Source: an uncultured Verrucomicrobiae bacterium
GTDB taxonomy: Bacteria > Verrucomicrobiota > Verrucomicrobiia > Chthoniobacterales > UBA10450
Assembly: GCA_963834385.1 (NCBI GenBank)
Contig: CAWIBO010000005.1
Coordinates: 748,415 to 812,414, forward strand
DNA length: 64,000 bases
Direction of reading: 5' to 3'
The position numbers are program-made. Below are positions 52,001 to 58,000 of the stretch, piece by piece (position 1 is the first letter of the stretch; every line of letters starts with the position of its first letter).

Positions 52001-55000
52001 GCGCTCGTGCCGGAACTGGTGAAGAAGGAGCAGATCGCCGCGGCCATCGCGATGGACCGCTCGGTCTTTCACGCGTCGCGCCTGATCGGTCCCTCCACCG
52101 CCGGCATTCTCGTCTCCGTTTTCGGGGCGGCCTCCGCCTTTTTCGCCAACGCCACCTCCTTCCTGGCCCTGATCGTGGCCATGCTCACCCTGCCGCCCCG
52201 CACCCCGGGCACGGCGCAGGAGGAGGAACAGCGCAAAAGCGGTTTCATGGAGGGGATCCGTTATGTCCGCTCGGAAAAGACGATTCTCTCGCTCATCATC
52301 CTGATCGCGCTCACCACCACCTTTGTTTACCCGGTGGTGGGATTGATGCTCCCGCTTTACGTGAAGAACCTGCTCCAGCTCGGACCGGACAAGCTCGGTT
52401 ACCTCATGGCGGTCTCCGGCATCGGCTCGCTCTCCGGCTCGCTCGGCCTGCTCACCGTCGCCCCCGGCCGCCGCATCAACGTCATCACCATCGGCGCCGC
52501 GGTCGTGGCCGCCTGCGTCTTCGTGATGTCGCGGTCCACCAGTTTCCTCGTCACCGCCGGCGCCATGGGCATCCTCGCCATCGGTCTTTCCATGCTCTTC
52601 GGCCTTTCCAACACCATCGTGCAGGAACGAACGCCGCCCGCCCTGCGCGGACGCGTCTCCGCCGTTTACGGCCTGAGCTTCTTCGGCCTCATGCCGATCG
52701 CCGGCCTGGTCGTGACCGGTCTCTCCGACCTGATCGGCATGCGCACCGCCCTGATGCTGGCCGCCATCGTTTATGGGGTGACCGCGGTCTGGAACCTGCG
52801 TCGTTGCGAGCATACCCCGGCCGTGGCCACGACCACACCGGCCCCGGCGGAACCGGAACCGGCACCGCTCGTTTGAAATCCCTCCCTCCCGTGATCGCCT
52901 TCTCCACCTGCTGGAACTCGAGCCGGCACACCGCCGGTGAGGAAATGCTGCGCGAAATCAAGGAACTCGGCTTCGACCTCGTCGAGCTCGGGCACGGCAT
53001 CCGCATCTCGCTCCTGCCCGGCATCCAGGAATATGCCGAAACCGGCGCGGTCCGGTTCAGCAGCCTGCACAACTTCTGTCCCCTCCCCGTGGAGGTGATG
53101 ACCGCCTCGCCCGATTGCTACCAGTTTTCCGCCTTCGACGCGGGCGAACGGGAACGGGCCGTCCGGCAAACCTTCCAGACAATCGACTTTGCGGAGCGGC
53201 TCGGCGCCCCTTTTGTTGTCCTGCATTGCGGCGAGGTGCGGATGAACCCGATCACGGACGAGCTCGTGGCCCTGGCGAAGGAAGGCCGGCTTTTTTCGCG
53301 CGAATATGTGAAGGCCAAGGTCCGGGCCGTGCAACGCCGCGAGAAACGCGCCCCGCGCTATCTCGTCCGGGTGCGCGACTGCCTGCGCCGCATTGTTGAT
53401 TATGCCGCGACGAAAAACGTGAAGCTCGGGATCGAGGGCCGGCGCGGTTACGAGGAAATCCCGAGCGAACGCGAGATTCCGCAGTTCCTGGAGGAGTTCA
53501 ACGCACCCCATGTCGGCTACTGGCACGACATCGGCCATTTGCAGGTGAAGGAGAACCTCGGGTTCCTCAACCACGCGGAATGGCTGGAGACGATCGGGCC
53601 GCGCACCTTTGGCTGTCACATGCAGGACGTCATCTGGCCCGCGCAGGACCACCAGCCGCCGTTTCGCGGGCCACGTCGATTTTGACCGCCTCCTCCCGCT
53701 GCTGCCGCCCGAGTGCCTTTACGTCTGGGAATTGAGCCCGCGCCGCAGCGTTGAGGAAGTGCTGCGCTCGGTCGCGATCTGGCAGGAACGTTTCGCCGCG
53801 TGAAAAAAATTCTCCTGACGCTGCTGCAGTTGAGCGTGACGGCGGCGATCCTTTACTGGGTCTTCCACGACCCGGTGGCCCGCGCCAAGATGGCCACGGC
53901 GCTGCGCCAGGCCGACTACAGCTGGATCGTCTTCGGCATCCTGGCCTATTTCGTGGTCGAAGCCTGCACCGCCTTTCGCTGGCACGTCCTGCTCAAGGTC
54001 CAGGGGATCAACCTTTCCGCACCCGCGCCTGACCGGCCTGTTCCTGATCGGGATGTTCTACAACCAGTTTCTCCCGGGCGGCACCGGCGGCGACATCATG
54101 AAATCGTACCTGCTCCTGAAGGAAACGCCCGGCCGGGCCACGGGCGCGCTCCTGGCCGTGGTCTTTGATCGCCTCGTCGGCCTGATCGCGCTGGTCGCCA
54201 TTACCGGGACCCTGATCGGGTTGCGCTACGATTTCCTGGCGCAGACGCCGGAGACGCGGCAGCTCCTCTGGATTCTTCTCGTGATCCTGGGGAGCGCGGT
54301 TTTCGGTTTGCTGACCAGTTTTGTCATCAGCGGGTTCAACCTGGCGCACCTCCTCCCGCAAAAATTTCCCGGGCGCGAAAAGCTGATCGAGATCTCCGCG
54401 GCCTACCATCTGTACGCGCGGCACTGGCGGACCACCGCGGTGGCGTTCGGGGCCTCGATCGTGGCCCATCTCGGGACCTTCGCGACGTTCCTCTTCGTGG
54501 CCTTCGCCTTTGGCGCGCGCATCCCGCTCCTCGACTTCTTTGCCGTCATGCCGGTGGAACGCACCATTTCCTCGCTCCCGATCAGTTTCGCCGGCGTCGG
54601 GGTCCGCGAAAAGGTGCTCCAGGTGATGCTGCACAACCTTTGCGGGGTGCCGGAAGCCGTGGCCGCCCTGATCGGCTCGATGAGTTTCCTGATCATTCTT
54701 TTCTGCTGCCTTCCGGGCGGGATCGTTTACTTCTTTTATAAACCGAGCGGGCCGGCCGGCATGCTCCCGCTCAGCGAAATGAAGAAGGAAGTCGCCGCGG
54801 TGGAGCATGAGATCGAGGTCAACGACACGCAAAACTAAACCGGGGAAACCGGAGCGCCCCCTGCGGCTGCAGCGGCCGTTTGTCGCCGTGACCTTTGCCA
54901 TGACCCTTGACGGCAAGATCACCACCCGTGCTTTTTCGCCGGTCGATTTCACCTCGCGCGAGGACAAGCGCCATCTGCTGCGCCAGCGCGCCCGCGGCGA

Positions 55001-58000
55001 TGCCGTCCTCGTCGGGCACACCACCGTCCGCCGGGATAATGTCCGGCTGGGCGTGCCCGACGCCGCCATGCGCAAGGAGCGCAGCAAACGCGGGCAGACC
55101 GAGTATCCGCTGCGGGTGATCGTTTCCAACGAAGGCCGGATCGACCCGGCCCTGAACGTTTTCCAGACCGATATCTCGCCGATCCTGATTTTTTCCACGA
55201 CGCGCATGCCGCGGAAGACGCAGAAGGCGCTGCGGGAGAAGGCCACCCTGCACCTGAGCTCGGAGCGGACGGTCGACCTCGCCTGGATGCTGCATCAGCT
55301 CCGGTGCGATTACCGGGTGCGCCATGTGGCCTGTGAAGGGGGCGCCTCGCTTTTCCGCGCCCTCCTCGAGCACGACCTGGTGGACCAGTTGAACCTGACC
55401 ATCGCGCCGTTTCTTTTTGGTGGCGCCGACGCCCCCACCCTGACCGGCCTCGACAAGACGCTTCCTGCCCCGGAGCGTGGAACTGACCCTCAAGGAGATG
55501 CGGGTGGTGGAGGAGGAATGTTTTCTGACCTACCGCGTGAAACGGCGTAAGTTGGGGAAAGGCAGAAGACTAATTAGGAAACCAGGAACACAGGAAAAGA
55601 AATAGGAGTTAAAGCCCGCCACTGGTCACCGATTCACCGATCACTGATCACCGTCTCATTCTTACCTTCTCCCTTTCCCAGACATGCGCAAGACCAACTC
55701 CATCATCATCCACGCGCCGCGGCCGTTGATCTTCGAGACCGCCGCCAACCTCGAGCTTTGGCCGAAGATCCTGCCGCATTACCGTTACATCACCTACCTC
55801 GAGCGCGGGCCCGACCGGAACCATGTGATCATGGCAGCCACGCGGTCCGGCATTCCCATCTCCTGGGAATCGGAGCAGGTGATCGACCGCGAGAAGTTCG
55901 AGATCCGGTTTCATCACCTCAAGGCTTTCACCAAGGGGATGGATGTCGTCTGGACCCTGACCGAGACGCCGGCCGGCGTGCTCGTCGAGATCAGGCACGA
56001 CCTGAAATTTCGGGTCCCGTTCCTGGCGCCAATCGCCGAGCCGATCATCGGCGATTTTTTCATCCATGCCGTGGCCAATCGCACACTTGCGCTGCATGAA
56101 AGCGTATCTCGAGAACATGCCGGGCGCGTAACATCGGTGTGAAACACCCGCGCAGAGCCGTCATCACCGGGCTTGGACCGATCACCTGCATCGGCACCGG
56201 CCGCGAAGCGTTCTGGAAGGGATTGCGGGCGGAACGGAGCGGGATTCGGCGGGTGGCCTCCTTCGACACCACCGGGTTCAACGCCCACTGCGGGGGCGAG
56301 ATCACCGATTGGAACCCCGAGGAACATTTCCCGCCGCATCGCCTGAAACGGCTCGACCGTTACGCCCAGTTCGCCGTCGGCTCGGCCCGGCTGGCGCTGG
56401 CCGATGCCGGGCTTTCCTACTCGCGCGAGGACCCGCAGGCGCGCGTCGGGGTCAGCTTCGGCACCGCCCTTGGGGGCGTCGCCGGCGCCGAGCAACAGCA
56501 CACTCATTTCCTGAAGAAAGGGACGCGCGGGGTCAACCAGACCCTCGCCGTCCAGGTCTTTGGCGGGTCGGCCCACTCCAACATCGCGCTCGAATTCGGC
56601 CTGCGCGGCGCCGGCACGACCAACTCGAACAGTTGCGCCAGCGGCACCGTCGCCGTGGGCGAGGCGCTCCGCTATATCCGCGACGATTTTGCCGACGTCA
56701 TGATCGCCGGCGGGGCGGAAGCGCCGCTCAGTCCGCTGACCTTTGGCGCTTTCGCCATTATCAAGACCATGAGCCAATGGGACGGCGACGCCGCCGTGGC
56801 CTGTCGCCCATTTGATGCGCAGCGCGACGGCTTTGTCATGGGGGAAGGCGCCGCCGCCCTCGTGGTGGAGGAACTCGAGCACGCGCGCGCGCGCGGCGCG
56901 CATATCTACGGCGAGATTCTCGGGTTCAGCCTGACCAATGACGCCTGGCACATGACGACGCCGTTGCCCGCGGCGGAATCTTCCGTGGCGGCGATGCGCC
57001 ATGCTTTGCGCGACGCGGGACGCGCTCCCGACGAGGTTGATTACGTGAACGCGCATGCCAGTTCGACCCAACTGGGCGACGCCGCCGAGGTGGTGGCGCT
57101 GCGGGAAGTCTTTGGCGGGCATTTGCCCCGCGTCCCGGTGAGCGGGACGAAGCCGTATACCGGTCACCCGCTCGGTGCGACCGGGGCGATGGAAGCGGTC
57201 ATTTGCGCGCTGGCCCTCGAGCACCAATGGATCCCGCCCACCCTGAACCGTGATCATCCCGACCCGGCCTGCGACATCGACACGGTGCCGCACCACGGCC
57301 GTGAGGCCAGGCTGCAGACAATTCTCAGCAACGCCTTTGGCTTCGGCGGGATCAACGCCTGCATCGTCCTCGGCGCCGCGCCGTAGCCTACTCCCTTCTC
57401 GTCCTGCTCCTGATCCTGATCTTGATCCTGCTCCTCTTTTTTAGACAGGATTAACAGGATTTTACAGGATTGGGGGATAGGTAGTCTTAAGCTTTAGGTT
57501 TTAAGCTTTAAGGGCAAGGTGGGCGGCACGGACCGCTCATCTGCCGAACAACGTTGCAGCGTGCCCCTGCTTAAAACTTAAGACTTAGGAGAGCTTTACA
57601 GCGGAGGGACGAGCTTCTGCTCGTCCGCGGACCTGCGGAAGCAGGTCCCTCCGTTACCGATCACCGACCCTCCGACTTCGCCCCCAATAACAAATAACGG
57701 TTAACCAATAACCAACTCCCGACCCCCGACCTCCGCTCACCCGCCCTCTTCCAGCATGTCCGGCCGGTTCCGGCGGGTGCGTGCCAGGCCCTGTTCCTCG
57801 CGCCACCGGGCGATGCGGACATGATCGCCGGAGAGGAGAACATCGGGGATCTTCCAGCCGCGAAACTCGGCCGGGCGGGTATACTGCGGCCCTTCCAGGA
57901 CGCCTTTGCAGAAGGAGTCGTCCCGGGCCGACTGTTCGTCGCCGAGGACGCCGGGAAGAAGCCGCACCACCGCGTCCACCAGGACCGCCGCCGCGAGGGC

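Follow-up and report, generated by a model that had tools for sequence, protein, structure and literature searches.

The bacterial family UBA10450 shows a demand for reduced folate without a recognised supply: among 151 genomes surveyed, ThyA is present in 139 and canonical FolP in 143, but FolA and ThyX are found in none. Because ThyA oxidises folate at each turnover, its presence without FolA or ThyX is unusual. Most bacteria that lack a recognisable DHFR use ThyX, according to the excerpted source (PMC1971073). We propose, at a probability of roughly 0.6, that the family lost both folA and a second dihydropteroate synthase (DHPS) paralogue, FolP2, and that a RibD_C reductase for a dihydropteroate-like compound was co-opted as its sole dihydrofolate reductase. 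What we observe directly, as described below, is how the genes are distributed, a fusion, the fold of the reductase and its residues; the use of NADPH by this reductase, its ancestral substrate, its DHFR activity and the reason for its retention are what we infer.

In the order's ancestor, an NADPH-dependent RibD_C enzyme with the DHFR fold would have partnered the divergent FolP2, probably reducing the dihydropterin ring of a pteroate-like FolP2 product (the presumed substrate), and its pocket may already have accepted dihydrofolate, slowly. The UBA10450 family would then have lost both FolA and FolP2 and kept RibD_C as a core gene because, on this proposal, it had become the only dihydrofolate reductase, a stand-alone enzyme with which the family would regenerate tetrahydrofolate.

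With ThyA kept and FolA missing across an entire family, the long-standing question of the 'missing DHFR' could be tested through a single gene in a single complementation assay. Should the proposal be correct, a RibD-type enzyme would for the first time be seen to serve a whole lineage as its only dihydrofolate reductase; the riboflavin-enzyme annotation of stand-alone RibD_C proteins would have to be reconsidered in favour of a folate role, metabolic models of these soil bacteria would miss a step, and the family could be intrinsically insensitive to trimethoprim. We take UBA10450 to be the GTDB home of Ca. Udaeobacter. Excerpts of one study report that Ca. Udaeobacter increased in soil microcosms under antibiotic mixtures including trimethoprim, and also under amoxicillin alone (PMC7343977). 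A missing trimethoprim target could have contributed to this rise; since it occurred under amoxicillin alone as well, the microcosm result is no test of the idea. The literature covered (main texts, with few subscription journals) contained no account of FolA loss in the family or of a FolP-RibD_C fusion.

Folate genes and searches for a replacement

The window analysed here, 64,000 nucleotides long, belongs to a genome that is 89.6% complete. This genome yielded no match to DHFR_1 (PF00186) at E ≤ 1, a best E of 0.09 in tblastn searches with nine FolA proteins of the order and four longer FolA frames, and no Thy1 (ThyX). ThyA is encoded by a single full-length copy with zero internal stops; FolE, FolP and FolC were detected by motif and FolK and FolB were also found, in agreement with an earlier note that the folate synthesis genes are kept.

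Across the family, the DHFR_1 profile matched proteins of three genomes, all of one genus and all partially (profile positions 38-107 or 38-116, E 1e-5 to 4e-8). On translation they prove to be short RibD_C 'DHFR-family' proteins, ~175-195 aa long; we therefore count true FolA as absent from all 151 genomes and reject a diverged FolA. Elsewhere in the order FolA is present in 142 of 153 genomes, so that the family-wide loss first described from 0 of 41 family genomes against 53 of 54 others holds in the larger sample, as do the retention of ThyA (previously 5 of 5; now also 96 of 99 near-complete genomes) and the absence of ThyX. Canonical FolP occurs in 97 of the 99 near-complete genomes, with open frames mostly of 280-320 aa. 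The family counts take in four unpublished genomes (G172, G175, G181, G288) and the order counts one (G158), and the conclusions are independent of these. Independent FolA losses elsewhere in the order were considered and rejected: G030 and G128 are missing thyA as well and the ThyA match of G170 is weak and partial, so these three are likely assembly gaps, and G043, in which ThyA and FolP2 are present and FolA was not found, is one genome at 92% completeness whose reductase sequence is of the order type and has not converged on the residues of the family.

Several known kinds of replacement were also set aside. In 25 family loci thyA is accompanied by an L,D-transpeptidase-like gene, by other genes that vary and by no conserved reductase, and no reductase neighbours folK, folB or folP in the genome under study. 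Its FolP (283 aa) and FolC (404 aa) carry no additional domain, which excludes a reductase fused to either, as in the H. pylori-type 'DHFR2', a flavin-dependent, FolA-independent route in which a reductase is fused to dihydropteroate synthase (PMC1971073, in excerpt). The same excerpts name FolM and PTR1 as recognised non-orthologous replacements of FolA (PMC1971073); these short-chain pteridine reductases differ in fold from RibD_C. Their TGxxxRxG motif was found in 12 of 151 family genomes, not above a reversed-pattern control (the pattern omits TTR leucine codons), and in none of the ten SDRs of the genome under study. For R67/DfrB, a motif search gave one chance match in this genome, the only one searched.

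A family-specific SDR encoded in a cluster with folE, triple PTPS and phenylalanine hydroxylase (G000 C2:380973-381665) could in principle double as a DHFR in the manner of FolM or PTR1. It is present in this genome and 14 of 17 family relatives and in 0 of 153 other genomes of the order, lying immediately after PTPS, with folE upstream, in 7 of 7 relatives' loci. We nevertheless regard this as very unlikely: the SDR was not found among the 16 protein candidates scored per genome in G054 (100% complete), G065 and G084, and an uncapped motif search with a positive control did not find it in these three or in G262 (one contig), although all four have ThyA and the RibD_C gene and no FolA. Its motif is TGxxxGIG rather than TGxxxRxG, and its context would suit a sepiapterin reductase for tetrahydrobiopterin. 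Still slimmer is the chance that short accessory RibD_C 'DHFR-family' proteins (~175-220 aa) do the work, a different one in each genome. One or two occur in G054, G014, G141 and three genomes of genus g7, and some weakly match DHFR_1, but the genome under study has none; those seen fall into several unrelated groups (~30% identity between two), and therefore none of the proteins checked extends across the family.

The candidate reductase gene

RibD_C is matched twice in the genome, by a full RibD and by the stand-alone gene of the window (Table 1), as had been reported. The RibD reductase domain retains its Lys, first Arg and Glu here and in three family genomes; the second Arg is present in those three and not in this copy. 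Judged by these residues, the riboflavin reduction step is predicted to be covered by the full RibD. The extent given earlier for the stand-alone gene, 54807..55550, needs correction, as the frame is broken near 55459-55462 and the C-terminus runs to 55605; the extra base is probably an assembly indel, because the ClpB and LPG-synthase genes in the window are split as well.

Table 1. Features of the candidate reductase locus (positions within the window).
Feature	Position	Strand	Remarks
Xylose-isomerase-like TIM barrel gene	52804..53685	+	Conserved neighbour; presence does not follow the reductase across the order
Lysylphosphatidylglycerol (LPG)-synthase TM (flippase-like) gene	53800..54838	+	Split across two frames; overlaps the reductase start
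Stand-alone RibD_C reductase gene, candidate dihydrofolate reductase	54807..55605	+	Annotated as ORF 54807-55550, which goes out of frame near 55460; the family-type C-terminus lies in the following frame, up to 55605
Thr at the site of the RibD Lys	54891..54893	+	Thr in 41/41 family sequences; Asn or His in 64/64 other order sequences
Invariant Asp, 105/105 sequences	54963..54965	+	Aligns with Asp33 of M. mazei Rib7
Invariant Thr, 105/105 sequences, strand after EGG motif	55398..55400	+	Same in Rv2671; Cys, Tyr or Phe in archaeal Rib7
Single additional base compared with three family orthologues	55459..55462	+	
SRPBCC / polyketide-cyclase-like gene	55684..56142	+	Conserved neighbour
FabF-like beta-ketoacyl-ACP synthase	56139..57386	+	Conserved neighbour

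Orthologues (E<1e-40) occur in 141 of 150 family relatives (94% of the family), extending the 40 of 41 counted before. With 98 of 99 near-complete genomes, against 96 for ThyA and 97 for FolP, the gene is retained in the family like an essential one. Outside the family it is found in 102 of 153 genomes of the order (38 of 54 FolA-bearing ones in the earlier count), including one of 0.9 Mb that keeps it together with FolA, ThyA and a full RibD; this bears out the earlier suspicion that the reductase has another job in FolA-bearing relatives.

By profile search the orthologue matches RibD_C only, not DHFR_1. A structure model of the reductase (pLDDT 89) matches Rv2671 bound to a dihydropteroate ring at Z 26.7 and TM 0.87. 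The invariant Asp is presumably the acid that binds the 2-amino-4-oxo ring, like Asp27 of DHFR, and may correspond to the pterin-binding Asp of Rv2671; the Lys replaced by Thr we take to be K152 of E. coli RibD. Like Rv2671 of M. tuberculosis (4XRB, 4XT4, 4XT6), whose structures contain the pterin rings of dihydropteroate and tetrahydrofolate, the window protein is a stand-alone RibD_C domain with a separate riboflavin deaminase-reductase in the genome, the same fold and a common Thr after EGG. The two differ in that identity is ~25% and that the window protein scores 94 bits, and an intact orthologue 85, where the NCBIfam model of the Rv2671 family, NF010663 (PRK14059), has its cut-off at 184; moreover, the verrucomicrobial reductases form a clade of their own in a quick tree. 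On present evidence the earlier note picked the right candidate, as the fusion, co-occurrence and selective retention described below indicate, but 'Rv2671-type' describes a resemblance, not a membership. Available excerpts state that M. tuberculosis RibD/Rv2671 is able to serve as an alternative DHFR, and that Rv2671 has low activity and substitutes for DHFR only under high over-expression (PMC10812664). M. tuberculosis has FolA, with Rv2671 as a weak back-up, whereas the UBA10450 family has no FolA.

Archaeal Rib7 proteins (M. mazei 5XUX; M. thermautotrophicus 6P8C, 2AZN) are the best matches in both sequence and fold, with Z 29.4 against 26.7 for Rv2671 and profile E 1e-40 against 8e-28; the direct match to Rv2671, at E 2.1e-18, is weaker than theirs, as the earlier note had found. 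They share Asp33, a first-helix Arg and an inserted helix with the window protein, which might accordingly be read as an archaeal-type riboflavin reductase, the FolA gap being filled in some other way. We give this little credence. The protein scores 111 bits against the 186-bit cut-off of the archaeal Rib7 model TIGR01508, and of the Rib7 residue pair it keeps the Asp, while the Asn at the RibD-Lys site, present in 58 of 64 order sequences, is Thr in all 41 of the family; the invariant-Thr site differs too. The host has a full bacterial RibD with reductase residues, and where this subfamily is fused, it is fused to a DHPS rather than to a riboflavin enzyme.

We found no gene-specific burst of change in the reductase on comparing column switches and stem lengths with those of its LPG-synthase neighbour: the family has switches at 11 of 84 conserved columns, against 11 of 79 in the neighbour, and stem lengths were similar. 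Eight of the 11 switched sites lie within residues 1-65 (p 0.035), yet the overall rate equals the neighbour's, and an adaptive burst was rejected. Constraint on the pocket in the family is no greater than in other families and lies within their range.

Association with FolP2 and conserved neighbours

The same RibD_C subfamily sits behind a DHPS domain as a fusion in P0096, and the fusion occurs in Akkermansiaceae; it made up 50 of 51 matches in one search and 26 of 69 loci in another survey. Fused, order and family RibD_C domains fall in one clade (SH-aLRT 100), and the fused DHPS domains form a separate paralogue clade, FolP2, both in quick trees; the family's own FolP is canonical. FolP2 carries altered loop motifs (N..DDSF, ESAR.N, S.NTW and F-A-K in 17 of 17, unlike 15 canonical copies), passes the TIGR01496 dihydropteroate synthase cut-off (231-235 versus 163 bits) and falls only in generic DHPS clusters of the ESM Atlas. 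A second folP of unknown function is also reported from mycobacteria in the excerpted source (PMC1971073). FolP2 matches canonical DHPS (E 2e-48) better than mycobacterial FolP2 2VP8 (E 1e-33); being no closer to the latter, it does not establish the mycobacterial parallel as orthology. The fusion follows the same logic as the H. pylori-type DHFR2. It differs in joining a DHFR-fold RibD_C rather than a flavin reductase to a second DHPS paralogue, and in that FolA, like canonical FolP, is present in all five fusion genomes tested.

Among the 153 genomes outside the family, reductase and FolP2 are both present in 86, both absent in 43, and found singly in 16 (reductase) and 8 (FolP2); the p-value of 9e-17 overstates this co-occurrence because the genomes are related. 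In family f6 the reductase is present in 4 of 18 genomes, the same four that have FolP2, and in family f14 in 1 of 17, again the one with FolP2, where the TIM-barrel neighbour occurs in all 18 genomes of f6 and in nine of the 17 of f14. Co-occurrence and fusion with FolP2 tie the reductase to pterins. FolP2 is absent from all 151 UBA10450 genomes, and hence the reductase is kept without it in 94% of the family, compared with 16 of 59 (27%) FolP2-less genomes elsewhere. The fusion, the co-occurrence and this selective retention are new evidence beyond the earlier note.

A contrary reading is that an enzyme of another fold, such as a flavin-dependent reductase, makes tetrahydrofolate and that RibD_C is kept for a job of its lipid- or polyketide-like neighbours. 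The TIM-barrel, LPG-synthase, SRPBCC and FabF surroundings are retained in 23 of 30 family loci and widely across the order, which makes a job tied to the cluster possible, and at the loci examined the reductase gene is not adjacent to thyA or other folate genes. The 16 order genomes with the reductase and no FolP2 include near-complete, FolA-bearing ones (G037, G059, G022, G080, G169), four of them from the sister family f8; retention without FolP2 therefore needs no FolA loss. The lack of gene-specific acceleration fits this reading as well, as does the excerpted statement that many bacteria have no recognisable DHFR (PMC1971073). We still judge it unlikely, since the presence of the reductase tracks FolP2 rather than the TIM neighbour and the FolP, FolC and folate loci described above disclosed no other candidate.

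Beyond co-option of RibD_C as the family's dihydrofolate reductase, we tentatively entertain a broader possibility: FolP2 may attach the pterin to some amine that is not pABA, and its product may be reduced by RibD_C to a folate-like cofactor, in an undescribed two-enzyme verrucomicrobial pterin pathway from which the family dropped FolP2, along with FolA, so as to run ThyA wholly on the orphaned reductase. Separately, the FolP2-RibD_C pair is a lead in its own right, a putative conserved pterin pathway; the pair persists even in 0.9-Mb genomes.

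FolA loss and retention of ThyA in UBA10450

Profile searches of this genome and of 151 family genomes bear out the earlier note's claim that the genome and its family have ThyA and folate synthesis without FolA or ThyX. The genome itself (89.6% complete, five contigs) gives no match to the DHFR_1 or Thy1 profiles, and tblastn with the FolA proteins of 13 order loci finds nothing in it better than E 0.09. It carries a single full-length ThyA together with FolK and FolB, while FolE, FolP and FolC are present by motif; motifs also match the folate-using enzymes GlyA, PurN, PurH, MetH, GcvT, PanB and Fmt. 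Across the family sample, evenly drawn, covering 36 genera and in which absence means not found in the genomes searched, ThyA occurs in 139/151, canonical FolP in 143/151 and Thy1 in 0/151. DHFR_1 matches three of the 151, each time partially and each time a short RibD_C protein; such proteins might be proposed as the replacement, but they are patchy across the family and none occurs in our genome. Because no true FolA was found in the 99 near-complete family genomes, the gap is genuine rather than a completeness effect: family-wide loss of FolA with retention of ThyA is confirmed. Elsewhere in the order, FolA is present in 142 of 153 genomes. The counts include five unpublished genomes (G158, G172, G175, G181 and G288), without which the conclusions are the same, and the family name is as given in the earlier note.

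In G043, a 92% complete genome of another family of the order (f15), the gene after thyA is a DUF456 gene rather than folA, and FolA was not found elsewhere in it either, possibly a second, independent loss. The FolA match of four f8 genomes (G007, G048, G080 and G097) is broken into two parts with some 130 bases between them, which suggests an insertion inside folA.

Distribution and FolP2 partnership of the RibD_C reductase

Our genome encodes two RibD_C proteins, one full RibD and the stand-alone reductase. RibD keeps its reductase Lys, first Arg and Glu here and in three family relatives; the second Arg, presumably phosphate-binding, is kept in the relatives and is Ala in our genome, where an FMN-reductase gene abuts the RibD gene. 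Given these retained residues, riboflavin synthesis seems independent of the stand-alone gene. Orthologues of the latter, named in databases as Chthoniobacterales or Verrucomicrobiota proteins, occur in 141/150 family relatives; the other nine (eight of them <90% complete) give only a weak RibD match. No folate genes lie near the gene. Its block of TIM-barrel, LPG-synthase, RibD_C, SRPBCC and FabF genes is complete in 23/30 family loci; in 64 order loci it is kept in part, with counts of 45, 43, 29 and 31 that are limited by flank length. Since orthologues also occur in 102/153 other order genomes, most of them FolA-bearing and one only 0.9 Mb, the reductase already served a function before the loss of FolA.

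Among 1.84 billion representatives, a profile search returned P0096, a dihydropteroate synthase (DHPS) domain fused to the same RibD_C subfamily. The fusion recurs: both domains are present in 50 of 51 matches, 47 of which measure 470–504 aa; the fusion is encoded at 26/69 genome loci, under titles of Akkermansiaceae, Verrucomicrobiales or wider Verrucomicrobiota. A quick tree of 81 selected rows gives the fusion one origin and groups it in a single clade with the proteins of the order and of the family (support 100). The DHPS part of the fusion is not canonical FolP; it is FolP2, a second, divergent paralogue that forms a clade of its own and differs in its loop motifs. Canonical FolP and FolA are also present in all five fusion genomes tested. 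An SDR gene lies directly upstream of the fusion gene in 34 loci, and in 22 (L258, L275) a methyltransferase-like and an FAD-oxidoreductase-like gene occupy the second and third places downstream, on the other strand.

FolP2 occurs in 94/153 non-family order genomes, in addition to canonical FolP where checked; in Akkermansiaceae it is fused to RibD_C (fusions P0096 and P0183; loci L253-L280). Of these 153 genomes, which are related so that the counts are not independent, 86 have FolP2 and the reductase, 16 the reductase alone, 8 FolP2 alone and 43 neither. The TIM neighbour (119/153) lacks this pattern: it is in 18/18 f6 genomes, only four of which have FolP2 and the reductase, always together, and in 0/17 of f13, where FolP2 and the reductase occur in 7 and 4. 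The 0.9-Mb single-contig genome, G009, keeps FolA, ThyA, full RibD, FolP2, the RibD_C orthologue and the TIM gene; the FolP2–RibD_C pair therefore survives strong genome reduction.

Within Verrucomicrobiota the gene is part of a subfamily that is usually paired with an uncharacterised paralogue of FolP. On the simplest reading of fusion and co-occurrence, the reductase would act on the dihydropterin product of FolP2, its putative ancestral substrate. FolP2 was found in 0/151 family genomes (the best match, 42% identical, falls in the canonical clade) and FolA was not found, so the family has lost FolA as well as the protein with which the reductase is usually paired.

A candidate replacement for FolA

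The reductase persists in 98/99 near-complete family genomes without FolP2, against only 16/59 FolP2-less genomes elsewhere. Because those 16, four of them in sister family f8, include near-complete FolA-bearing genomes, the gene can also persist without FolP2 for other reasons. A co-opted dihydrofolate reductase would be expected to look like this: an enzyme made for a pteroate-like substrate that is as frequent as a core gene among genomes lacking FolA.

The predicted fold of an intact orthologue (pLDDT 89) matches archaeal Rib7 (Z 29.4) better than RibG (27.1) or Rv2671 (26.7), and FolA proteins at about 15. Asp (aligned to Rib7 Asp33), Arg, Glu and Thr are invariant in 105 orthologues; Rv2671 has the Thr too and three archaeal Rib7 proteins lack it, and Asp and Thr would be the counterparts of the pterin-binding pair of DHFR. 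Eleven conserved columns are switched in the family, eight within the substrate-binding first 65 residues. Against co-option, the adjacent LPG synthase, with a similar stem length, has the same switch rate, the family's RibD_C pocket is not unusually constrained, Rib7 is the better structural match, and the G043 sequence shows no convergence on family residues.

The earlier note proposed this gene, as an Rv2671-type reductase, for the replacement of FolA. That it works like Rv2671 remains the most likely reading (probability about 0.6), whereas membership of the Rv2671 family does not hold, as the protein reaches none of the curated NCBIfam cut-offs. The precedent of Rv2671 as an alternative DHFR in M. 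tuberculosis, described in PMC10812664, is limited by low activity that calls for over-expression. In a soil organism that grows slowly, a low flux may be enough. A literature search covering few subscription journals returned no report of this FolA loss or of a FolP–RibD_C fusion.

The dihydrofolate reductase could instead be the SDR of a folE/PTPS/phenylalanine-hydroxylase cluster; the SDR is family-specific (15/18 family genomes against 0/153 others), which suggests that the family gained a tetrahydrobiopterin pathway. This SDR lacks the FolM motif, however, and was not found in four genomes, 96–100% complete, that carry both ThyA and the RibD_C reductase. Some other, unrecognised reductase may instead supply tetrahydrofolate. 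Separately, FolM/PTR1 was rejected, its motif occurring at background (12/151 family genomes).

Frameshifts around the window gene

The window copy of the RibD_C gene contains one extra base. Where relatives' proteins were used to probe our genome, 3 of 35 positions (some genes counted more than once) are split over frames, and ClpB in the window is split three ways, so the extra base is likely an assembly error. Indel errors of the assembly could also account for the other split genes nearby.

Coordinates of the features discussed
Feature	Location	Locus	Remark
RibD_C reductase gene	window 54807-55550		extra base near 55460; conserved C-terminus in next frame to 55605
ClpB	window 48605-51186		split over three frames
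Frameshift-split genes	window 45458-54838		ClpB, LPG-synthase gene, apparently DEAD-box helicase
Own RibD	G000:C3:119555-120097	L001	
HPPD, homogentisate dioxygenase, folE, triple-domain PTPS, SDR, phenylalanine hydroxylase	G000:C2:376578-383681	L327	
DUF456 locus, G043	G043:C22:21937-22725	L136	
FolP2 example	G049:C10:74582-75430	L197	
G009 locus	C1:767693-768367	L103	
G009 locus	48774-49598	L203	
G009 locus	442939-444155	L137
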